64,000 nt of DNA from Octopus vulgaris (Eukaryota), in contig OX597817.1 of the NCBI GenBank assembly GCA_951406725.2, positions 102,176,001 through 102,240,000 on the forward strand, given 5' to 3'. Numbering within the stretch: position 1 is the stretch's first letter; each line of letters opens with the position of its first letter. Shown here piece by piece: positions 2,179 through 60,930 of this stretch. The notes below the pieces were generated by a model that worked only from the letters and a program-made list of their open reading frames with translations, had not been told where the DNA came from and did not search any database. A program made the translations under genes and the position numbers.

Positions 2179-2305
2179 CACAATCAAGGAACGGCCATAA
2201 TAGGCCATTCACCCACTAGAAATAACAGCCAAAAGCTTCAACCGCAAAATAACATCAATTCCGTAAACCAGGAGAAAATTAAAATTAAAAAACATTTACC
2301 CTGTA

Positions 2306-2412
2306 ATTTCTTATATGATGCACCGTTTCGTCTACTGTTTAATGGTAAACTAACCTGATTAAATTAAATCAAGCCAATCTACCATAGGCCCTTAGATTCA
2401 TCAGTAAGAAAT
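2306..2412 (-). ncRNA. Type I hammerhead ribozyme, copy 1 (GUA changed to AUA, breaking a helix III pair)
   Basis: Reverse complement reads ATTTCTTA-CTGATGA...TAGAC-GAAA-CGGTGCATC-ATA-TAAGAAAT. Confidence 0.65.
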
Positions 2413-2796
2413 AGCCAAGTCGGAACAGATATTTTTCACGAGGCATTCTCGTCCCTGCCTCGTCAATATCTGACCTAAAATTTTCAAATCGTCACACTCG
2501 CGCCAAATTTATCGGCAGCAAATAAATATAAGCCGCCGATTCCATTACGGAACTAACCAGAAAATTCATAATTAATCAATATAGGGTGGCAAAAAAATTT
2601 TGTAGAATTCTTTTGCCACCAGCGGCCTAGTGGGAAAAAATTTAAATAGTCATAAACCATTTTTAAGTTCAACATCACAATCAAGGAACGGCCATAATAG
2701 GCCATTCACCCACTAGAAATAACAGCCAAAAGCTTCAACCGCAAAATAACATCAATTCTGTAAACCAGGAGAAAATTAAAAAACATTTACCCTGTA

Positions 2797-2903
2797 ATTT
2801 CTTATACGATGCACCGTTTCGTCTACTGTTTAATGGTAAACTAACCTGATTAAATTAAATCAAGCCAATCTACCATAGGCCCTTAGATTCATCAGTAAGA
2901 AAT
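2797..2903 (-). ncRNA. Type I hammerhead ribozyme, copy 2
   Basis: Reverse complement matches the 3282-3388 motif. Confidence 0.75.
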
Positions 2904-3281
2904 AGCCAAGTCGGAACAGATATTTTTCACGAGGCATTCTCGTCCCTGCCTCGTCAATATCTGACCTAAAATTTTCAAATCGTCGCACTCGCGCCAAATT
3001 TATCAGCAGCAAATAAATATAAGCCGCCGATTCCATTACGGAATTAACCAGAAAATTCATAATTAATCAATATAGGGTGGCAAAAAATTTTGTAGAATTC
3101 TTTTGCCACCCTATATTGATTAATTATGAATTTTCTGGTTAATTCCGTAATGGAATCGGCGGCTTATATTTATTTGCTGCCGATAAATTTGGCGCGAGTG
3201 CGACGATTTGAAAATTTTAGGTCAGATATTGACGAGGCAGGGACAGAATGCCTCGTGAAAAATATCTGTTCCGACTTGGCT

Positions 3282-3388
3282 ATTTCTTACTGATGAATCT
3301 AAGGGCCTATGGTAGATTGGCTTGATTTAATTTAATCAGGTTAGTTTACCATTAAACAGTAGACGAAACGGTGCATCGTATAAGAAAT
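3282..3388 (+). ncRNA. Type I hammerhead ribozyme with long helix II
   Basis: Helix I ATTTCTTA (3282-3289)/TAAGAAAT (3381-3388); CTGATGA 3290-3296; GAAA 3365-3368; quasi-palindromic helix III ACGGTGCATCGT; GTA cleavage triplet ending 3380. Confidence 0.8.
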
Positions 3389-3610
3389 TACAGGGTAAAT
3401 GTTTTTTAATTTTCTCCTGGTTTACGGAATTGATGTTATTTTGCGGTTGAAGCTTTTTGGCTGTTATTTCTAGTGGGTGAATGGCCTATTATGGCCGTTC
3501 CTTGATTGTGATGTTGAACTTAAAAATGGTTTATGACTATTTAAATTTTTTCCCACTAAGCTGCTGGTGGCAAAAGAATTCTACAAAATTTTTTTGCCAC
3601 CCTATATTGA

Positions 3611-3660
<50 letters not shown>

Positions 3661-7116: not shown

Positions 7117-8370
7117 ATGAAGGGGCGCCCCTTCCTACTTGAAGGCTCTGAATTTATCTTCAAACAAGGAACGAAGTTTAAAATCAAGACCAACTTCTCC
7201 TGTTCCTCCAAGAACCTTATCTACGTTCTCACATGCGCTGGTTGCCAACATAATTATGTTGGACAAACGAGCCTCCCGTTACGTAAAAGAGTAGCGGTGC
7301 ATAAAGAACAAATAAATCTCCCGGAATACCGGCAAATCCCACTGAGTGACCACATAGACTCATGCGCTAAAGACAGAAATCCCAAATTCTACATATTCCC
7401 CTTCTACCAATGTGAAGACGGAATCACCACACAGGAGAGAATTAACAAGAAGAATCTCTTTATTGAAAATTCAAAACGCATCTTAATATGCAAACTCCTT
7501 GTTGATCATACTTCTTTTTTCTACCTCATTCTTCATGGATGGACTAACACAAATATATAAGGATACCATGCAGTCATCACCTCAAGCTAAAACTTATATT
7601 CTTTAAATATCATTATTATTATTGTTGTTATTATTATTATTATTATTATTTTTATTATATATGACATAACAATCTGAAATGTAATTATAAATTGGTTTAT
7701 GCAAATTTATATAATTAGAAAACAATATAAATAAAGTGTTAAAATCTGAATGCTAAATTAGCAAACAATTATATAAAAAAGATAATGCAAATGAAGCTAA
7801 AATGATAATCTTATAATTTAAGGTTTATTAACACCCTTTATTACAAAAAATTGATAAACACAAATTGAAGAGCTTAAAACCCATAGAGTTGTCTCCCCTT
7901 ATTCACAACACAGGAACTGGACTACTACTACTACTATTTCCTGTTTTGCCATGCACTTAAGAGACACCCTTAATTAAATTAAACAACACATGGATTTAAT
8001 CCCATTGGATCTCAATACTTCAAGGTAATTTTTTCGTGAACAATCATTAAACTCAAGATACACAAAGACTTTACAATGTATCGGAGTACCTATTTTTTAA
8101 TTTTTATATATATTTATTATTTTTTTGCAAAAAACAATGTAATTTTCTTTTTTTCCACCTCCTCACACTTAAAAAAATTTCTTTTCTTTACAATTCTTGA
8201 AAAGTCACATTATGACGAAAACCGGTTTGAATTAATATATATATATTTTACCAATTTTTCCATACACCCATTTTCATTAAAATTTTCTTTCAATTTAGCA
8301 TTCTGCCTTTTTACAATTTTTCCTTGCTTATCATTTCTCCATGTGCGGTCAACACAACCCCACCATTTAT

Positions 8371-8373
<3 letters not shown>
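7117..8373 (+). mobile_element. Penelope-like (Neptune-type) 3' fragment: GIY-YIG endonuclease end plus pLTR
   Basis: ORF 7117-7560 NLIYVLTCAGCQHNYVGQT...H...H; closely similar to 43163-44310 (reverse complement) and 46615-47488; ends in (TA)n. Confidence 0.9.
8192..8233 (+). ncRNA. Minimal type I hammerhead, U3-A8 core variant
   Basis: AATTC-TTGAAAA-GTCA catta TGAC-GAAA-ACCGGT-TT-GAATT. Confidence 0.7.
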
Positions 8374-14898: not shown

Positions 14899-15975
14899 CC
14901 CTTTCGTTACTATATTTCTGACGAAAATACACCCCTTATGTGTTTCAATTAATTTCTAACGTAATCATAAATTTAGTCTGGTTTCATTAAACAACTATAA
15001 CTTTTTTATTTATCAATATATTAACGTGAATTTTGGAAGATAATTTAATGAAATGTTCTCAACCAATTCTATACTATAATTTTTGTCACAAAGTGACTCT
15101 AATTGCAGGTAGATACAGGTAAATTCAACAAAATATAAAATTATTAAAATTTTGTTCAAACATCGCTATAGAAAATGGGTTATTAGCTAATATTCAATTG
15201 GGTATACAACAAAATTTTACTATAGAATTTGTTATTCTGGGTAACTTTCTGATACCCATAATATTTATGGCAAAATAAGCCTTAATTTCATTTAAGGTTG
15301 TGGGAAACCACAAAGTACCCTTTCTTTCGTTTTGTTTACATTTAGCGTAACGGTTCGTTTCCGCCGTAATGATTTCAAATAGGCTCATTCGAAAAAGAAA
15401 TAGTCTAAGGCTTTACTCTTCTGGGAAAGTCTGTGGCTTGGTCCAGTTTCTTCAGAAAAATCACCGAAAGAAACAGTTTTTAAATTTTCACTCTATTCAG
15501 GTGCCAATTCATTTTCTTTATCGCTGTCGGAGCTCTCGGATTCACTGTTTTCACTTTCGGAAAATGAAACATCAGATTCATTATCAAATACCACGTGCTT
15601 TTTTTTTTCAGTCATAGAGTTAGATTTATGAAGGTCTTCAGTAGAAAATCCTTCGAATTCTGACTCGCTGCTTGATATAATGAAATTTGTATCCATTTTT
15701 TGTCAGAATTACAAATTTTGAAAACACAATAGGAACAAATTTCGGAAAAAAATCTCCCAAAATTCACGGAATTAAAATTAGACTTCGATTTTTGTACAAA
15801 ACTGTAGTTGAACTGTTTATGAAGTATAATACGTATTTTCACGAATGTACTAAAGAGATTTGCTCTGATATTCTCATTTAAATATGAATAGGTAAATTCG
15901 GGCGGTTTTGGGCGGTTTGGTCACATTAACCAAAATTTTTTTCGGGTGGTTTTGGGTGGTTTGGTATCGAAAGGG
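14899..15975 (-). mobile_element. Internally deleted piggyBac nested in Tc1
   Basis: TTAA|CCCTTTCG...CGAAAGGG|TTAA; subterminal GGGCGGTTTTGG repeats; N-terminal transposase remnant (acidic SESEFEGF, ETNRYA, EIKAYF) at 15194-15696. Confidence 0.88.
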
Positions 15976-36555: not shown

Positions 36556-37160
36556 TCATCATCATCATCATCATTTAGCGTCCGCTTTCCATGCTAGTAT
36601 GGGTTGGACGGTTCAACTGGGGTCTGTGAAGCCAGAAGGCTGCATCAGGCCCAGTCTGATCTGGCAGTGTTTCTACGGCTGGATGCCCTTCCTAACGCCA
36701 ACCACTCCATGAGTGTAGTGGGTGCTTTTTACGTACCACCCGCACAGGTGCCAGACAGAGCTGGCAAACGGCCACGGACGGATGGTGCTTTTTACGTGCC
36801 ACCTGCACGGGGGCCAGGCGAGGCTGGCAACGGCCACGATCGGATGGAGCTTTTTACGTGCCAACGGCACGGGGGCCAGGCGAGGCTGGCAACGGCCACG
36901 ATCGGATCGTGCTTTTTACGTGCCACCGGCACGGGGGCCAGGCGAGGTTGGCAACGGCCACGAACGGATGGTGCTACGTGCCACCGGCACGGGGGCCAGG
37001 TGAGGCTAGCAACGGCCACGAACGGATGGTGCTTTTTACGTGCCACCGGCACGGAGGCCAGTCGGGGCGGCGCTGGCAACGGCCACCATCGGATGGTTCG
37101 CTTACTTGTCACCGGCACTGGTATCACAGCTGCAATTTCCATTGATGTTGGTCGACTTCG
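36556..37160 (-). mobile_element. RTE LINE 3' UTR containing a ~62-bp GC-rich minisatellite (~6.5 units, 36721-37120)
   Basis: (CAT)n end; units GGTGCTTTTTACGTGCCACCGGCACGGGGGCCAGGCGAGGCTGGCAACGGCCACG at 36721, 36784, 36846, 36908, 36970, 37028, 37095. Confidence 0.85.
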
Positions 37161-39172: not shown

Positions 39173-40980
39173 ATCATCATCATCGTTTAACGTTCGTTTT
39201 CCATGCTAGCATGGGTTGGACGGTTCGGCCAGGGTCTGGGAAGCCAGGAGGCTGCACCAGGCTCCAGTCTGATCTAGCAGTGTTTCTACAGCAGGATGCC
39301 CTTCCTAACGCCAACCACTCCGTGAGTGTAGTGGGTGCTTTTTACGTGCCACTGGCACAGGGGCCAGAGGAGGCTGGCAAACTGCCACGATCGGTTGGTA
39401 CTTTTACGTGTCACCGACACGGACGCCAGTCAGGCGGCGCTGGCACCTGTCACGTTCGGATGGTGCTTTTTACGTGTCACCCGCACGGGTATCTTTACAA
39501 TTTCCATTTGATTTTCATTTTGATGTTGGTGTTGACGTACTTGACTCAATAGGTCTCCACAGCGTGTCACTCTACGATCCAAGGTTAGTACAGCAGGCCG
39601 TCCTGCGAGCCTTGAACTCACTTCATTTGTCGGGTCTTCATAGTCACAGCATATCTCAGAGGTCTCGGTCTTCGTCATTTCCTCTGTGAGGCCCTACGTG
39701 CCACCAGCACGGGTATCACAACTACAATATCCATACGAATTTTATTTTGATGTTGATGGACTTGACACAATAGGTCTCCTCAAGCACAGCAGGCCGTCCT
39801 GCAAGCCATGAACTCACTTCATTGTCAGGTCTTCGAAGTCACAACATATCTCCAGAGGTCTGTCTTTCGTCATAGCCTCTGTGAGGCTGAAGGTACGAAG
39901 GTCATGCTTGACCACCTCGTCCTATGTCTTACTGGGTCTACCTCTACCCCGGATTCCTTCAACAGTTTGGGAGTGGCACTTCTTAAAAAACATCTCTCCT
40001 CATCCATCCGTAGTACATGTCCATACCAACGCAAACGTCTCTCCTGCACGCTGCATCCGAATGCTTCTTATGCCCAACATTTCTCTCAGGGCGCTAACAC
40101 TGTCGTGCATGGACACTGACATTACACATCCAGCAGATCATGCTAGCTTCATTTCTTTCGAGCCTACGCATGTCCTCCGCAGTCGCGGCCCATGTTTCAC
40201 TGCCGTGAAGCATGGCAGTTCGCACACATGCGTCGTACAATCTACCTTTCACTCTGAGCGAGAGACCCTTTGTCGCCAGTAGGGGAAGAAGCTTCCTAAA
40301 CCTTGCCCAGGCTATTCTTATTCTAATGGTAACACTCTCTGAGCATCCATCCCCACTACTAACTTGCTCACCTAGGTAGCAGAAACTATCAACTACTTCT
40401 AGTTTCTTCCCCAGGAGTGTAATGGAATCTTTTGTTTGAGTATCAATAGTGTCTATTGCCCCTGTGCATCTGCCGCACACGAAAGCTATCTTCTCGGTTA
40501 ATTTTTCTTTGATGTTGCTGCACCTCTTATGTGTCCATAGCTTACACTGGGTACATCTTATGGAGTTTCTACCTACACCTTTTCTAAAGATCGAGCAGGG
40601 CCACCTACCTAAAGGGGTGTGTGGTGAGTTTGCCTTCCTAGTTACTAGAACTTTGGTCTTTGCTACATTGACACTAAGGCCTTTTGATTCTAAACCTAGC
40701 TTCCACATACGAAATTTCTTCTCTAGTTCCGGTAGTGATTCTACTACGAGGGCTAGGTCATCAGCATAGAGGAGCTCCCAGGGCAACCCGTCTTGAATTC
40801 CTCTGTTATTACCTGGAGGACTATGATGAATAGAAGGGGACTGAGGGCTGAGCCTTGGTGGACGCCAGCTTCTACCCGGAATTCTTCACTATACTCATTG
40901 TCAATACTTACCTTACTAACAGCCTCTCTGTAAAGGGCCTGTACAGCCCTTATTAACCAGTCGTCAATCTCCAGTTTCCG
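39173..40980 (-). mobile_element. 5'-truncated RTE-clade LINE with a PHD-like Cys insert
   Basis: GVHQGSALSPLLF, ELLYADDLAL, CTQCKLWTHKRC...CGRC, FCYLG, HGSETW; 3' UTR ending (TGA)n. Confidence 0.92.
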
Positions 40981-41105: not shown

Positions 41106-41134
41106 ATATATACTATATATATATCTTATATATA

Positions 41135-41180
<46 letters not shown>

Positions 41181-41187
41181 CATATAT

Positions 41188-42561
41188 ATGCATAACTCTT
41201 TCTCCTTTCCTCCCGGCTCCTCCAAAATACTTTTTACAATCGACATCCAGAACCTCTATACCGTCATCCCTCACCACGAAGGACTGCGGGCACTTCAACA
41301 CTTTCTCGACCTCCGCCCCAACCCCGAACCCGACACCTCCACACTCATTCGTCTGGCCGTCGCGAGCGAGTTCTACCAACAGTTCTCGGGAGTGGCCATG
41401 GGAACGCGAATGGGCCCCAACTATGCGAACCTGTTCGTTGGCTATGGTGAGGCCCAAATATTCTCTTGTTTCACTGGTCCCACTCCCGAACTATACGGTC
41501 GTTACATTGACGACATTATCGGTGCCACCTCACTCTCCCGTGAACATCTAGATTCCTTCCTCTCTTTCGTTCAATCCTTCCATCCTACCCTCCACTTCAC
41601 CTCCACTATCTCCAACACTTCTGTCTCCTTCCTCGACATTTCGGTCAGCATTCATCACTCCACTCTTACCACCTCCATTTACTACAAACACACAGACTCA
41701 CACTCATACCTCAACTTCTCTTCCTCCCACCCCAAACACACCAAGCTTTCCATCCCCTATTCCCAATTCCTCCGTCTACGTAGGCTCTGTAGTGACGACC
41801 ATGACTTTGAGACTCAGTCTCAACTCATGGCTCGCCACTTCATCCTACGTGGATACCCCCTCACCACTATCCACACCACCCTTGCCAGAGCACGTTCCGT
41901 AGACCGTGCATCTGCTCTCTCCCCCCGAACCCGCCCTGCAGTCTCCCGCCTCCCTTTTCCCCTCACTTACCACCCCACCACCCTACCTCTCCAACGCACC
42001 ATTCTTCGAGCTTTCCGGCATCTCCAGTCCGACCCGTCCAAATCACACCTCTTCCCTAACCGACCCCTCCCCTCCTTCAAACGAGCCCATAACCTACGAG
42101 ACCTCTTGGTCCACAGCTTCTTCCCTGACCCTGCCTCTCAACCTGGCTCATTCCCCTGCTCCCGCTCACGTTGCCGCACTTGCCCTTACCTCTCCAACAC
42201 CACCCTCCTCACTGGCACCCATCATCGACCCTATCGCATCATCAACTCCTTCACCTGCACCTCCAGCAATATCATCTATTGCATCTCCTGCTCTCTCTGC
42301 CATTCCCTGTACATCGGACAAACGGGACGCCGCTTGGCTGACCGGTTCGCGGAACACCTCCGTGACATCCGCCTTGCCAATGACACACCGGTCTCACGCC
42401 AATACCGCTCCACCTGTCACACCTTGCAACGCCTGTCTGTGTTCGGATTGTCCTTGCACAGAGGTCATCCGGATTCCCGCTTGTGCCGTGAACAGGGATT
42501 AATCTTCTCTCTTCGCTCTTTTACGCCATTTGGTCTCAACTCTCCCCCACTTTTCATCTAA
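41188..42561 (+). CDS. PLE reverse transcriptase + GIY-YIG endonuclease (N-terminally truncated, probably non-functional)
   Basis: DIQNLYT, GVAMG, YGRYIDD, FLDI, YYKHTD, linker CSRSRCRTC, IIYCISCSLC-SLYIGQT-R-RFAEH. Confidence 0.85.
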   Translation: MHNSFSFPPGSSKILFTIDIQNLYTVIPHHEGLRALQHFLDLRPNPEPDTSTLIRLAVASEFYQQFSGVAMGTRMGPNYANLFVGYGEAQIFSCFTGPTPELYGRYIDDIIGATSLSREHLDSFLSFVQSFHPTLHFTSTISNTSVSFLDISVSIHHSTLTTSIYYKHTDSHSYLNFSSSHPKHTKLSIPYSQFLRLRRLCSDDHDFETQSQLMARHFILRGYPLTTIHTTLARARSVDRASALSPRTRPAVSRLPFPLTYHPTTLPLQRTILRAFRHLQSDPSKSHLFPNRPLPSFKRAHNLRDLLVHSFFPDPASQPGSFPCSRSRCRTCPYLSNTTLLTGTHHRPYRIINSFTCTSSNIIYCISCSLCHSLYIGQTGRRLADRFAEHLRDIRLANDTPVSRQYRSTCHTLQRLSVFGLSLHRGHPDSRLCREQGLIFSLRSFTPFGLNSPPLFI

Positions 42562-42983: not shown

Positions 42984-43021
42984 TCTTTCTGTCGAAGAGC
43001 GTAGGCTCAAAACGTAAAAGA
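42984..43021 (+). ncRNA. Degenerate minimal hammerhead in pLTR
   Basis: TCTTT-CTGTCGA-A-GAGC gtag GCTC-AAAA-CG-TA-AAAGA; two core substitutions (A6, G12). Confidence 0.55.
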
Positions 43022-43116
43022 CTTGATTTATTTCTATTCCTGAGCGCCATACTAATACAATTGTTTGTTTGTACTCCACCTGCCTTCGTCTTTTGTTTAT
43101 TTTCGTAAACCTTCCC

Positions 43117-43166
<50 letters not shown>

Positions 43167-43254
43167 AGGAAAAATTTTTTTAAAAATGCAGAATGCTCAA
43201 ATGAAAGAAAATTTTAATAAAATGAGAAAATGATAAAATATATAAATATATATT

Positions 43255-43295
43255 TATTCAACCGGTTTTCGTCATTGTATGACTTGTCAAGAATA
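43255..43295 (-). ncRNA. U3-A8 hammerhead variant in pLTR (lacks H17)
   Basis: Reverse complement TATTC-TTGACAA-GTCA tacaa TGAC-GAAA-ACCGGT-T-GAATA. Confidence 0.6.
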
Positions 43296-44290
43296 TTTAT
43301 GTTTTAAGAAGTTTTTTTAAAAATTAGAAAGGGGAAAAAAAGAAAATTGCATTGTTTTTTGTAAAAGAATAATGATAAAAATGTACAAAAATTAAAAAAT
43401 AAATTCTCCGATACATTGTGAGTTCGTTGTGTATCTTGAGTTTTATGGTTGTTTACGAAAAAATTACCTTGAGGTGTTAAGATCCAAAGGGATTAAGAGC
43501 ATGTGTTGTGTTGTGTTGTTAAATTCAGCATGTTTGCAGGACAGGAAGTAGTAGTAATTGTGGTCCTGGTTCTTCAGTTCCTGTGTTGTGAGTAAGGGGA
43601 GACAACTCTTTTGAGTTCTTCAATAAAACCCAAATTATAAAACTATCATTTTAGCTTCATTTGCATTATCTTTTTTATATAATTGCTTGTTAACTTAACT
43701 TTCAGATTTTAACACTTTATTGATATTATTTTCTAATAATATAAATCTGCATAGACAATTGCATTTCAAATTGTCATATCATTTATAATAAAAATGATAG
43801 TAATAACAACAATAGTAAAAATGATATTTAAAGAATATAAGTTTTAGCTTGAAGTGATGAATGCATGGTATCTTTATATATTTGTGTTAGTCCATCCATG
43901 AAGAGTGAGGTATAGAAAGGAAGTTTGATCAACGAGGAGTTTGCATATTAAGTTGTTTGGAATTTTTCAATAAAGAGATTCTCCTTGTTAATTCTCTCCT
44001 GTGTGGTGATCCCGTCTTTACATTGGTAGAAGGGGAATATATAGAATTTGGGGTTTAAGTCTTTAGCACATGAGTCTAAGTGGTCACTCAGTGGAATTTG
44101 TCGGTATTCCGGGAGATTTATTTGTTCTTTATGCACCGTTACTCGTTTACGTAACGGGAGACTCGTTTGTCCAACATAATTATGTTGGCAACCAGCGCAT
44201 GTGAGAACGTAGATAAGGTTCTCGGAGGAACAGGAGAAGTTAGTCTTGATTTTAAACTTCGTACCTTGTTTGAAGGTAAATTCAGAGCCT

Positions 44291-45727
44291 TCAAGTAGAA
44301 AGGGGCAGGTACCACAGTTTGAGCGTGCACATTTTTTTTACTGTTGGGGGTGGATGTGGTGTGTGAAGTTTGGCATTTGTCAAGAGTTTTTTTAAAGATT
44401 TGTGTTGCCTTTTGCATTTGAGGATTTTGTGTGTATTTATAATGTTTTTCATTTTTGGGTCTGTTGACAGTAGACTGAGGTTTTGTATGATTGTGGTGTA
44501 TGCTTCGATATTTTTGGGGTTGTGGGTGGAAATGTATGGAAGTATTTTGAGGTTGTGTGTGGTGTTAGGTTGGGTGGTTTTCAGTGTAGTGTTGTCTAGT
44601 TCTTTGGCGCGTTTTATTCCATACTCTATAAGGGTGGAGGGATATTGACGTTGTAATAGTGTTTTTTTGAGGTCTTGAATGCGTATTTCTCGTGTTTTTG
44701 GATCCGAGACAATGGTGCATACCCTTTTAGCTAAATTGAAAGGGATATTTGTCTTGGTGTGTTTTGGGTGGCATGAACTAAAGAGGAGGTATTGTTGTGA
44801 GTCTGTAGGTTTGTGGTAGATGTCTGTTATGATTTGGTTCTTAGGTGTTTTTATAATTAGGAGATCAAGGAATGGGAGATGATGTTTGCTTAATTCCATA
44901 GTGAATTGGATGTTGGGATGTATGTTGTTTAGTATGGTTTTGAATTCCAGGAGTTTTTCATAAGGTTCTTTCCATATGATGAAACAATCATCTAAATACC
45001 TTTTCCAGTTTTCCATTAGGTAGGTGTGGAAAACATGTCCAAATTTCTGGCTTGATATTTCATAGAGTGACAGTTCGAAGTAACCCATTATGAGGTTCGC
45101 AAGGACTGGTGCAGCCTTGGTACCCATCGCAATGCCACATTTTTGACGGTAGTGTGTGTCGTCGAAGAGAAAAAAATTGTTTGTCAGAATGAACTTAAGA
45201 GATTCTGTAATAAAAGACTTGTTAATGCGGTCAGGGAATGTCTCTGGGTGTTTTTCTAGCCAGAAGTCAATTGCCTCTATACCATACTCATGTGGAATGT
45301 TGGTGTAGAGGTTGATGACATCAAAGGATACCAGGAGTGCCTCCTCGTTAACTGTTTTCGGGAGGTGTTTGAGCATGTCCAGATCATCCCTAATGAAACT
45401 TTTGATGTGGGTAAGGAAAGGTTTCAAAAGGATGTCTAGGAAGTTACTCAGGCGGTGTGTTTCACAGGAGGTACCAGCCACGATGGGCCTTAGTTTTAGG
45501 TCCTCCGGTGCTTTGATGTTGATGTGGATGTCAGTGGAGAGTTTGCAGGCTTCGGTGATGTATTTGTTTTTATGGATTTTAGGAAGGCCATAAAAAAAGG
45601 CTGGGCTTGCATTTGAAAATGGTGATATAATCCCTTTCCTTTTCTGTGAGTCCCTGACCGTGTTGGCGTATGAGTGTGGTGAGGTTTCTGATTGTTTTTT
45701 GCTGTTTGTAGTTGTTAATAACCCCAT
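44291..45727 (-). pseudogene. PLE reverse transcriptase core (longest open segment)
   Basis: LRPIVAG, SFDVINLYTNIP, WKRYLDDCF, LPFLD, YHKPTD; frameshifts at both ends. Confidence 0.9.
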
Positions 45728-47306
45728 AGAAAATGTTATTGTTAAGCATGGAGAACACTAGGTGTTTATAAAATTCCGTGTCCATAAGGACCACAGCACT
45801 CCCTTTGTTCGCTTCTTTGATGGTGAGGTTTTTATCCAGTTGTATGTCACGTAGGTTTTCCCATTCTTCCTTACTGAAATTGGATTTTACCTTGGTTTTG
45901 CTTGGGGTAAAGGGGAGACTCTGGATGTGTTTACAGAAATCGTCCAGTGTTTTATTTCTCCCTTTTGGTGGTAGGAAGTTGCTTTTATTTCTGATCAATG
46001 AATCGTCCCCATTGTTGATATCTGTCAAAGCTTCTGTTAGGCGAAGTTTTCTGCAGAATTCAGAAACGTCATCCTTGACCTCCGGGGGTTGGGTGTTCTT
46101 GGGGTGGGTGTGAATTTCAAACCTCTTGCTAGGATGTTGATTTGGGTTGGTGTCAGTGTTTTGCTGGAGAGGTTTATAATTTTTGTTTTCTTATTTTGGG
46201 TCTGTGTTAGCGGTGGTGTTTGTATTTTTCCCCTCTGTCTAAAAAATGGTTGTTGAGGTAAGGGGTGTATTTTTGTTAAAGTTCTGGTTGTATGTGTAGG
46301 AGTGTTTTTGGGTGGGGAGGTTGGAGGGGGTAGGTAGTTGTCGTATTTGTGTTGGTATGGGATGCGATGGTGTAAGGATTTGTGAGAAATGCGATGGGTT
46401 TGTGGGTGTGTGTCTGGTAGATTGTATGGGGGGATGTAGGGGGGTATGTAGTTGTGGTGATTGGGTTCGTGTGGGATGTGAGGGTTTGGAGATCTGTAGG
46501 AGATGTGGTAGGCATGTGGTTGTTGGATGGGTGGACTATAGGGGGTTCGTTGGGTGGGTCTTATATGTATCGGTGTGGGTAGGATGCCTTGTTTGTTATT
46601 AGTGTGAGGGAGGGAGGAGAATCTCTTTATTGAAAAATTCCAAACACAACTTAATATGCAAACTCCTCGTTGATCAAACTTCCTTTCTATACCTCACTCT
46701 TCATGGATGGACTAACACAAATATATAAAGATACCATGCATTCATCACTTCAAGCTAAAACTTATATTCTTTAAATATCATTTTTACTATTGTTGTTATT
46801 ACTATCATTTTTATTATAAATGATATGACAATTTGAAATGCAATTGTCTATGCAGATTTATATTATTAGAAAATAATATCAATAAAGTGTTAAAATCTGA
46901 AAGTTAAGTTAACAAGCAATTATATAAAAAAGATAATGCAAATGAAGCTAAAATGATAGTTTTATAATTTGGGTTTTATTGAAGAACTCAAAAGAGTTGT
47001 CTCCCCTTACTCACAACACAGGAACTGAAGAACCAGGACCACAATTACTACTACTTCCTGTCCTGCAAACATGCTGAATTTAACAACACAACACAACACA
47101 TGCTCTTAATCCCTTTGGATCTTAACACCTCAAGGTAATTTTTTCGTAAACAACCATAAAACTCAAGATACACAACGAACTCACAATGTATCGGAGAATT
47201 TATTTTTTAATTTTTGTACATTTTTATCATTATTCTTTTACAAAAAACAATGCAATTTTCTTTTTTTCCCCTTTCTAATTTTTAAAAAAACTTCTTAAAA
47301 CATAAA

Positions 47307-47347
47307 TATTCTTGACAAGTCATACAATGACGAAAACCGGTTGAATA
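47307..47347 (+). ncRNA. U3-A8 hammerhead variant in inverted pLTR (lacks H17)
   Basis: Identical to the 43255-43295 motif. Confidence 0.6.
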
Positions 47348-47486
47348 AATATATATTTATATATTTTATCATTTTCTCATTTTATTAAAATTTTATTCCA
47401 TTTGAGCATTCTGCATTTTTAAAAAAAAATTTTTCCTTACTTATCATTTCTCCACGTGCGGTCAACACAACCCCACCATTTATTGA

Positions 47487-47518
<32 letters not shown>

Positions 47519-51124: not shown

Positions 51125-51685
51125 CCACAAAATGATCATACAAAGTGATAAGAATTCTTAAAAACCCAAAAAGACATTTGACCATCCCGACAATGTTAAA
51201 AGGAAATATAATTTATGGCTTACCTCCCCACCACCACACACTCAATAACACTGTGAAGTGGTCAAAACTGAAATTCTTAGAACCCTCTTGGAGTCAATAT
51301 CCTGTCCAGCAGACCCAAAAACTTCTTTCCATCTTCTTCCCTCTCCCTTCCCCTCTTTCTCTTTAGCAATCACCTCAGATACAAACACACACACACACAC
51401 ACGCACACGCACACACACACACATATACAGATACACACATGTTCTCCCTCTCAGTTTCTCCTCATCCACCTCACCCTCCTGTACTGTCTTACATTCCTCC
51501 CCATCACAAGAGGAACTATAAAATGATTAAAATCCCCAGCAAAGGAACTTATTTTCATTTGAAAACCCCACTAGAATGGGAGAAAGCGCTAATGAACTAA
51601 GTGATATGATATATATGTAAAAAATGTAATACATAAATAAATATCTGTAAATACAAACCATCCGATCTTCTGATTACCTCATTTC

Positions 51686-53403: not shown

Positions 53404-53968
53404 TCATCATCATCATCGTTTAACGTCCGTTTTCCATGCTAGCATGGGTTGGACGGTTCGACCGGGACCCGGGAAGCCAGGTGGCTGCACCAGGCTCCAG
53501 TCTGATCTGGCAGTGTTTCTACAGCTGGATGCCCTTCCTAACGCCAACCACTCCGTGAGTGTAGTGGGTGCTTTTTACGTGCCACCGGCACAAGGGCCAG
53601 AGGAGGCTGGCAAACGGCCACGATCGGTTGGTGCTTTTACGTGTCACCGACACGGACGACAGTCAGGCGGCGCTGGCATCTGCCACGTTCGGACTGTGCT
53701 TTTAACGTGTCACCGGCACGGGTATCCTAAATACAATTTCCATTTGATTTTCATTTTGATGTTGGTGTTGACGTACGTAACTCAATAGGTCTCCTCAAGA
53801 ACAGTGTGTCACTCTAAGATCTAAGGTTAGCACAGTAGGCCGTCCTGCGAGCCATGAACTCACTTCATTTGTCAGGTTTTTGAAGTCACAGCATATCTCC
53901 AGAGGTCTCGGTCCTTCGTCATGTACTCTGTGAGGCTCAACGTACGAAGGTCATTGACCACCTCGTCA
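53404..53968 (-). mobile_element. RTE LINE 3' fragment
   Basis: Highly similar to 39173-39920. Confidence 0.85.
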
Positions 53969-55084: not shown

Positions 55085-55090
<6 letters not shown>

Positions 55091-55378
55091 CGAGAAAGAA
55101 GCAACAAGAATGGATAGGTTTTTAGTACAATCGTTTCATACAAAGACAGGCTTTATTAAAAGTTGCAAAAATTACAGCATATAAACGTGTCCTGTACTCA
55201 TCAGCTAAAATACATGTGAGTTCTCTAGACATGTCTAGAGAACTCACATGTATTTTAGCTGATGAGTACAGGACACGTTTATATGCTGTAATTTTTGCAA
55301 CTTTTAATAAAGCCTGTCTTTGTATGAAACGATTGTACTAAAAACCTATCCATTCTTGTTGCTTCTTTCTCGCTTATA
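55085..55378. repeat. Perfect 294-bp palindrome (147-bp arms, no spacer) containing two hammerheads
   Basis: Centre CTAGACA|TGTCTAG at 55231/55232. Confidence 0.92.
55253..55343 (+). ncRNA. Type I hammerhead with long helix II (mirror copy at 55120-55210, minus strand)
   Basis: TTTTAG-CTGATGA-GTACA...TGTAT-GAAA-CGATTG-TA-CTAAAA. Confidence 0.8.
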
Positions 55379-60470: not shown

Positions 60471-60492
60471 TTCTCAAACAAAACACTACACT

Positions 60493-60925
60493 AAAACACA
60501 TGCATCCTAATCCTCCAAAGAAGTTCTTACATGGAATAATACTGAATTTTAAAAGCTTAAAGACACTATAATGTGTTGGTATACTTACTTATAAAATTTT
60601 TGTATATATTTATTATTTTTAAAAAAAAAACATTACACAAAAACACATGCATCCTAATCCTCCAAAGAAGTTCTTACATGGAATAATACTGAATTTTAAA
60701 AGCTTAAAGACACTATAATGTGTTGGTATACTTATTTATAACATTTTTGTATATATTTATTATTTAAAAAAAAAAACATTATAAATTTTTTCCCCTTCCT
60801 CATCTTGAAAATTTGCCTTGCAATGAAAGCCAGTTTGATTTCCTTTTTAAATCTTTCTTACCCCTATTTATATTAAAATTTGATTTCAGTTTAGCATTCT
60901 GCCTTATTATTATTTTTTTCCTTTC

Positions 60926-60930
<5 letters not shown>
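60493..60930 (+). mobile_element. PLE pLTR-like remnant with a 147-bp tandem duplication and a degenerate U3-A8 hammerhead (60802-60839)
   Basis: Duplicate starts at 60493 and 60640; ATC-TTGAAAA-TTTGC ctt GCAAT-GAAA-GCCAGT-TT-GAT; TTAGCATTCTGCC as at 8295; ends in (TA)n. Confidence 0.6.

Follow-up and report, generated by a model that had tools for sequence, protein, structure and literature searches.

What does a hammerhead core that reads UUGAnAA in place of CUGAnGA represent when it recurs within one retroelement family, and is it the property of that family or of a whole lineage of Penelope-like elements (PLEs)? The question arises from a 64,000-nt stretch of Octopus vulgaris DNA, referred to here as the window, in which cores of the type UUGA(A/C)AA were predicted at four places; all four were recovered, with nucleotide 3 at 8197(+), 47312(+), 43290(-) and 60805(+), and at each of the four the type I hammerhead core, Y3 U4 G5 A6 N7 R8 A9 with G12 A13 A14, retains its Watson-Crick pair between positions 3 and 8 as U3-A8. 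The motif at 8192-8233(+), referred to as the long form, belongs to the minimal hammerheads of type I, having U3 at 8197 and A8 at 8202, a helix I of 5 bp (8192-8196 with 8229-8233), a helix II of 4 bp closed by G10.1-C11.1, the GAAA strand from G12 to A15.1 at 8217-8220, U16.1 at 8227 and, as H17, an unpaired U17 at 8228. Its helix III is formed by an 8-nt palindrome at 8220-8227 running from A15.1 to U16.1, with an inner palindrome at 8221-8226. The motifs at 47307-47347(+) (U3 at 47312, A8 at 47317) and 43255-43295(-) (U3 at 43290, N7 = C) represent a short form with one U fewer between GAAA and helix I. At 8192 and at 47307/43255 alike, the core lies between helices I and II, the motif ends in helix I and G10.1-C11.1 is present, so that the predicted integrity of the two helices stands; it does not extend to the cleavage site of 47307/43255, which is one U short in the standard register, a difference that was missed when the two forms were treated alike. 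The fourth motif, at 60802-60839(+), has the long-form spacing and a helix II of different sequence in which pairing is kept. Its proposed status as a more distant relative is confirmed by its flanks, which align with the family in blocks of 72% and 80% on either side, but the motif itself is decayed: its palindrome is broken, helix I has 3 bp, 10.1-11.1 is U.U, and a strict structural descriptor does not match it. The position in the pLTR, the sense orientation relative to the ORF and the short palindromic helix III are those of PLE min-hammerheads. An unpaired base between A9 and 10.1, usual though not universal in PLE min-hammerheads, is absent from the window motifs, as it is from a related element (L001) and, in Fig. 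S3 of PMC4209133, from the entries for shrimp and Saccoglossus(2). Judged by its sequence, the feature is a real PLE hammerhead with a compensatory core pair, for which self-cleavage is predicted.

The main copy of the host element lies at 43163-46615(-) and is frameshifted, with a reverse transcriptase (RT) carried by the ORF pieces 45579-46190 and 44291-45757 (RVT_1, E 4.5e-8), a CX4CxxC linker and, at the C terminus, a GIY-YIG endonuclease. Its homologues are RT-GIY-YIG proteins (44-68%), the named ones being mostly from octopus, oysters and mussels, which fits a mollusc host. The order of RT and C-terminal GIY-YIG endonuclease is that of an EN+ PLE, and the linker falls within the pattern CX2-5CxxC between RT and endonuclease that characterizes Neptune elements. 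The hammerhead is found on the sense strand about 0.65 kb past the RT-endonuclease ORF, with the 3' UTR in between, and the copy ends in (TA)n without a tail. Its 5' end is abutted by an inverted, 5'-truncated copy (46615-47488(+)) that is 99.3% identical to it over 827 columns; since the arms differ in 6/827 columns, 43290 and 47312 represent the arms of one inverted insertion, and the independent U3-A8 copies in the window are three, namely 8192, the 43290/47312 pair and 60805. An optional tail of about 47 nt (47442-47488(+)) terminates the inverted arm and also the 8192 copy, and is absent from the 43290 arm; the inverted 5'-truncated copy and the optional tail together form the pLTR architecture of EN+ PLEs. 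The 8192 copy is itself 5'-truncated (7127-8373(+)) and comprises a GIY-YIG remnant (E 2.4e-4, just below Pfam's cut-off), the 3' UTR/pLTR with its hammerhead, the tail and a (TA)n end. With 81.6% identity to the 43-46 kb copy over 1223 columns, it belongs to another subfamily. The motif at 60805 lies in a diverged sibling pLTR remnant (60476-60928(+)) within which a segment of about 147 nt is duplicated in tandem (60476-60781, 95.6%) just upstream of the decayed hammerhead, and here, as in all copies, the end is marked by (TA)n.

Neptune and Nematis EN+ PLEs carry a Zn-finger-like linker and an optional tail of 30-40 bp (Craig et al. 2021, PMC8557442), and an optional PLE tail is also described in PMC11167929. 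The RT, linker, C-terminal GIY-YIG domain, inverted copy, optional tail and (TA)n targets of the window element match the features given for PLEs, including microsatellite targets, in the covered part of PMC8557442, the window tail of about 47 nt being longer than the 30-40 bp stated there. The element would accordingly be classed as Neptune- or Nematis-like, the RT tree being made up of unclassified elements. The assignment of the motif to a PLE pLTR, made in the original prediction, is borne out by this RT-GIY-YIG context. A non-LTR retrozyme, which consists of short non-coding monomers in tandem with a canonical hammerhead, was considered and rejected, as the motif is joined to RT-endonuclease coding sequence and does not lie in a hammerhead-bearing tandem. 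At 43117-43165, two different PLEs join tail to tail within one (TA)n run, which suggests a common target preference.

In the window, the strict structural descriptor returned three U3-A8 matches and none for C3-G8, U3-G8 or C3-A8, and 200 block-wise dinucleotide shuffles gave no match of any kind; chance therefore does not account for the cores. The bare pattern TTGANAA...GAAA, which had been proposed as a search for further cases, proved unspecific, with 9 matches against 5.44 expected and 14/100 shuffles reaching 9, although a search confined to CUGAnGA would indeed overlook the U3-A8 motifs of the window family. An Rfam search of the window at E <= 5 gave 156 matches, the 150 listed ones including no hammerhead, and the same search of seven relatives, including those with C3-G8, gave none at E <= 1; because the C3-G8 relatives were also unmatched, Rfam appears blind to this minimal type and the null result is uninformative. 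Among the weaker candidates, the loose-descriptor matches at 14968, 15016, 30498 and 31455 fail the strict descriptor, and ten viral pattern matches, with a helix I of 0-3 bp, were put down to chance or to structures other than hammerheads. The hairpins at 2466, 2957 and 3229 also match the loose descriptor but pair as long stem-loops and are not type I motifs. Comparison of 8192 with 47307 further showed no difference at any of the 33 core and stem positions defined by the model, as against an identity of 84.6% in the flanks (binomial p ~0.004, with the 33 positions counted by eye and gaps ignored). The changes between the two motifs are confined to N7, loop 2, the one U and an A-U/U-A exchange of both bases in helix I's outer pair. 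At the level of sequence, this shows the stems and core to be under constraint.

The U3-A8 core, put forward as an overlooked variant, had already been published, in 2011 for natural hammerheads (PMC3088659) and in 2014 for those of PLEs (PMC4209133). Natural U3-A8 covariation was reported by Perreault et al. 2011 (PMC3088659), with in vitro activity known from earlier work, and the swap, which retains the 3-8 Watson-Crick pair, is recorded there as active in vitro in other hammerheads. These variants share the 3-8 covariation with the window motifs, and an inserted base in the GAAA strand has a precedent among them. In Schistosoma mansoni, U3-A8 hammerheads were described in Cercyon PLEs, for which a dedicated descriptor gave about 1,300 matches (Cervera & De la Pena 2014, PMC4209133); Fig. 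S3 of that paper includes two U3-A8 families, one of which (Sm4) has the same 7-nt core as 8192 together with U17. The Cercyon min-hammerheads and the window motifs have in common the type I motif in a pLTR, U3-A8, the short helix I and the palindromic helix III, whereas the window PLE, Neptune- or Nematis-like with its Zn-finger linker, is of another clade and has a host that is mollusc-like, and its motif lacks the A9/10.1 unpaired base, has a helix III palindrome of 8 nt rather than 4 nt and is one U short in one subfamily (compare PMC4209133). The Drosophila, Aedes, shrimp and rotifer PLE hammerheads likewise occupy the pLTR and contain the dimer-favouring palindromic insert in helix III but, unlike the window motifs, have C3-G8 cores in Fig. 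S3 (PMC4209133). The anole Poseidon PAc hammerhead (PMC11167929) is also a PLE pLTR motif near an optional tail, and its activity depends on the 3-8 pair; it differs in its C3-G8 core, in an ORF that starts inside the motif and in having been assayed in vitro. A literature search on octopus retrotransposon hammerheads returned no title on the window family among those listed, subscription papers lying mostly outside its scope. To the Schistosoma Cercyon elements for which U3-A8 PLE hammerheads were published, the window adds a family with a Zn-finger linker from a host that is mollusc-like.

How such a motif might act was approached through folding. The 8192 monomer does not fold as a hammerhead (MFE -3.6 kcal/mol), and the hammerhead dimer evaluates at -16.9 kcal/mol. 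The MFE of the dimer, -19.5 kcal/mol, corresponds to a slipped register that buries U17 and lies 2.6 kcal/mol below the active fold. U17 is moreover the weakest of the bases allowed at the cleavage site. It is likely that the feature represents a U3-A8 type I minimal hammerhead of a PLE 3' pLTR which cuts slowly after U17, only as a dimer joined through the palindromic helix III, and probably with the help of a protein. The dimer would be supplied by the two pLTRs of a tandem array present on one transcript, the paired motifs, joined through the palindrome, would then cut slowly after U17, and the protein of the element would probably assist the cleavage. Metazoan PLE min-hammerheads have been reported to show no cleavage as monomers and weak cleavage as dimers (PMC4209133, PMC6765202), and for the anole PLE hammerhead both the PLE protein and the 3-8 pair were required for activity, the hammerhead being dispensable for insertion in vitro (PMC11167929). 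The window hammerhead is probably not needed for transposition. The copies in the window are themselves likely to be inert, because 8192 stands alone and any transcript reading through 43-47 kb would trap 43290 and 47312 in a duplex some 820 bp long.

Public contigs were used to ask whether U3-A8 is the norm of the window family. The element was found in 20 runs of 10 studies, none of them recorded as an RNA run, so that these data have no bearing on expression. In one run (X12), 91 of 172 contigs were at least 99% like the query stretch, a figure given without the share that spans the core. Four of the eight listed X12 pieces (18 of 230 pieces being listed) cover nt 3 as well as nt 8 and differ in just one letter, which excludes C3-G8; the remaining four may have either core pair. 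The loose-end consensus of a sibling subfamily reads U3, U7 and A8 (3 contigs, agreement 0.82), the cleavage site lying outside the compared stretch, and one counter-example is a loose-end consensus with C3 and A8 (2 contigs, agreement 0.73). The lack of rows with a difference at U3 or A8 is weak evidence, because every listed row had at least 31 letters of contig to the aligned end. Runs with few contigs (X14 with 2, X15 with 3 and X2 with 0) were left out. A family consensus of CUGAnGA would have spoken against the original prediction; the contigs probably point to U3-A8 instead, with the one C3/A8 consensus against, and U3-A8 is probably the norm of the window PLE family.

Both the long and the short form are present in public contigs. 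Loose ends with the extra U of the long form were contributed by four contigs of X12, three of X16 and one of X10. At the last base of the short-form stretch, 1731 of 2091.5 depth continues through in X16; in X12 the clipped share does not exceed roughly a fifth, and a further half or so stops a few bases away and is assigned to neither form. Depth is no measure of copy number here, and the reference used favours the short form. On these contigs, the short form is not private to the window copy. It was likely derived by the loss of one U, because 8192, 60805 and contigs with 47307-type flanks all have the long spacing. In the folding models, the short-form dimer with the full 8-bp palindrome, which has no N17, evaluates at -20.1 kcal/mol. 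At 43290/47312, U17 becomes available as H17 only through an extra A or a non-palindromic loop; the dimer with U17 freed evaluates at -17.5 kcal/mol when the GAAA strand takes an additional A and helix III has 6 bp, and at -9.9 kcal/mol with two bulges. A register with G17, a variant covered in PMC3884650, was rejected for the short form, as it needs an 8-nt core without the 3-8 pair. The short form is most likely both derived from the long form and impaired. The two forms, one base apart, provide a simple test of whether PLE transposition needs hammerhead cleavage, and if the short form is dead, its subfamily would be a natural in vivo demonstration of PLE amplification without a working ribozyme.

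These observations bear on a second reading, which sees in the motif a relic that has lost catalysis: the element no longer needs its hammerhead and carries it along inside a copied pLTR, and U3-A8, U17 and the loss of one U are all stages of its decay. The depth at which the short form is represented in X16 fits poorly with strict selection on cleavage, and its subfamily may have spread without the standard cleavage site. In the anole, PLE hammerhead mutants insert normally in vitro and no RNA-seq ends were reported at the cut site (PMC11167929), and Naiads are described as thriving without canonical hammerheads (PMC8557442). Against decay speak the 33 of 33 core and stem positions kept while the flanks diverged, the two-sided change in helix I, the joint switch of both core positions to a pairing state, and the persistence in three runs of the long form with its U17. 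A dead relic is accordingly regarded as rather unlikely, and slow dimeric cleavage by the long form is preferred.

A third reading holds that both forms are active, the short form folding in the register assumed in the original prediction, in which the GAAA strand loops out an additional A, helix III is a palindrome of 6 bp and U17 is present. It is in keeping with the frequency of the short form in contigs and with two relatives (L003 and L005) that have the same central CCGG in the 6-bp register. A natural hammerhead variant in which U13a is inserted into the GAAA strand is described as likely tolerated (PMC3088659), so that the short form may have an active register. In the dimer, however, the 8-bp register without N17 is favoured over the 6-bp extra-A register by 2.6 kcal/mol, and the long spacing in 8192, 60805 and the contigs with 47307-type flanks makes the short form look like a deletion. 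Activity of both forms is thus considered quite improbable. The proposal that a young subfamily has spread with U3-A8, U17 and the extra A of the GAAA strand while still cleaving as a dimer seems unlikely; no description of that extra A together with U3-A8 and U17 was found in the literature passages covered, including those of PMC3088659.

It remains to be asked how far U3-A8 extends beyond the window family, for which 13 related loci from metagenome and MAG contigs were compared. Seven of these carry a motif past the endonuclease, in every case with GAAA followed by a 4-nt palindrome, and in the other six none was present, mostly since the contig ends too early. The core is C3-G8 in six of the seven (L001, L003, L005, L008, L009 and L012), three of which (L003, L005 and L012) have a weak helix II, were not matched by the helix II descriptor and had to be read by eye. 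U3-A8 occurs in the seventh, L013, which comes from another host and whose motif sits in AT-rich sequence. The RT tree places L013 together with L012 (98/99) and away from the window element; the sister group of the latter (86/90, not starred) includes L001, L003 and L005. The C3-G8 PLE motifs at L003:1412 and L005:1511 have a helix II of 1-2 bp and would be missed by descriptor searches. L008-L013, short contigs with animal-type PLEs in bacterial MAG records, most likely represent host contamination. No further relatives were obtained from an initial genome-contig scan or a viral protein scan. A second, distant PLE with the same type of linker is present in the window itself (ORF 41107-42561), followed by a C3-G8 minimal hammerhead at 42984-43025(+), with its core at 42989, that has decayed through changes at A6 and G12.

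The claim that an entire PLE lineage uses U3-A8 thus holds in part: three diverged copies make the variant the likely norm of the family, but it is not clade-wide, as six of seven relatives and the second PLE of the window have C3-G8. Comparison of these cores identifies U3-A8 as a mark of the window family and not a trait of the clade. Its strong form, in which U3-A8 would be the ancestral, clade-wide core of a large and overlooked PLE lineage, can appeal to three independent copies, to an unrelated U3-A8 motif at 51559 and to L013 from another host, but is very improbable and already largely refuted at the level of the clade, given C3-G8 in six of seven readable relatives, the grouping of L013 (98/99) with the C3-G8 element L012, and a variant and descriptor that were published in 2014 (PMC4209133). 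Taken together with the Schistosoma case, the change from C3-G8 to U3-A8 looks like a recurrent switch at the level of families, albeit on few rows. As the 3-8 pair seems to switch family by family, searches for PLE hammerheads should allow both pairs, as has been known since 2014.

Several other features of the window were recorded. A hammerhead-like motif with U3-A8, unrelated to the family, occurs at 51552-51599(+), with U3 at 51559, a helix I of 5 bp, a 4-nt palindrome, A17 and C.A at 10.1-11.1; it is set in about 260 nt of sequence flanked by (CA)n and (TA)n, and its A17 could pair with U3 and trap it. At 2281-3618, nested near-perfect inverted and direct repeats were found with no ORF of at least 120 aa, containing three copies of a stem-loop whose internal loop is GAAA and which has a string resembling U3-G8. 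A repeat family with internal tandem units of 62-66 nt is represented at 36651-37067, 39173-39501 and 53406-53734, and a perfect 147-bp palindrome without a spacer is located at 55085-55378.
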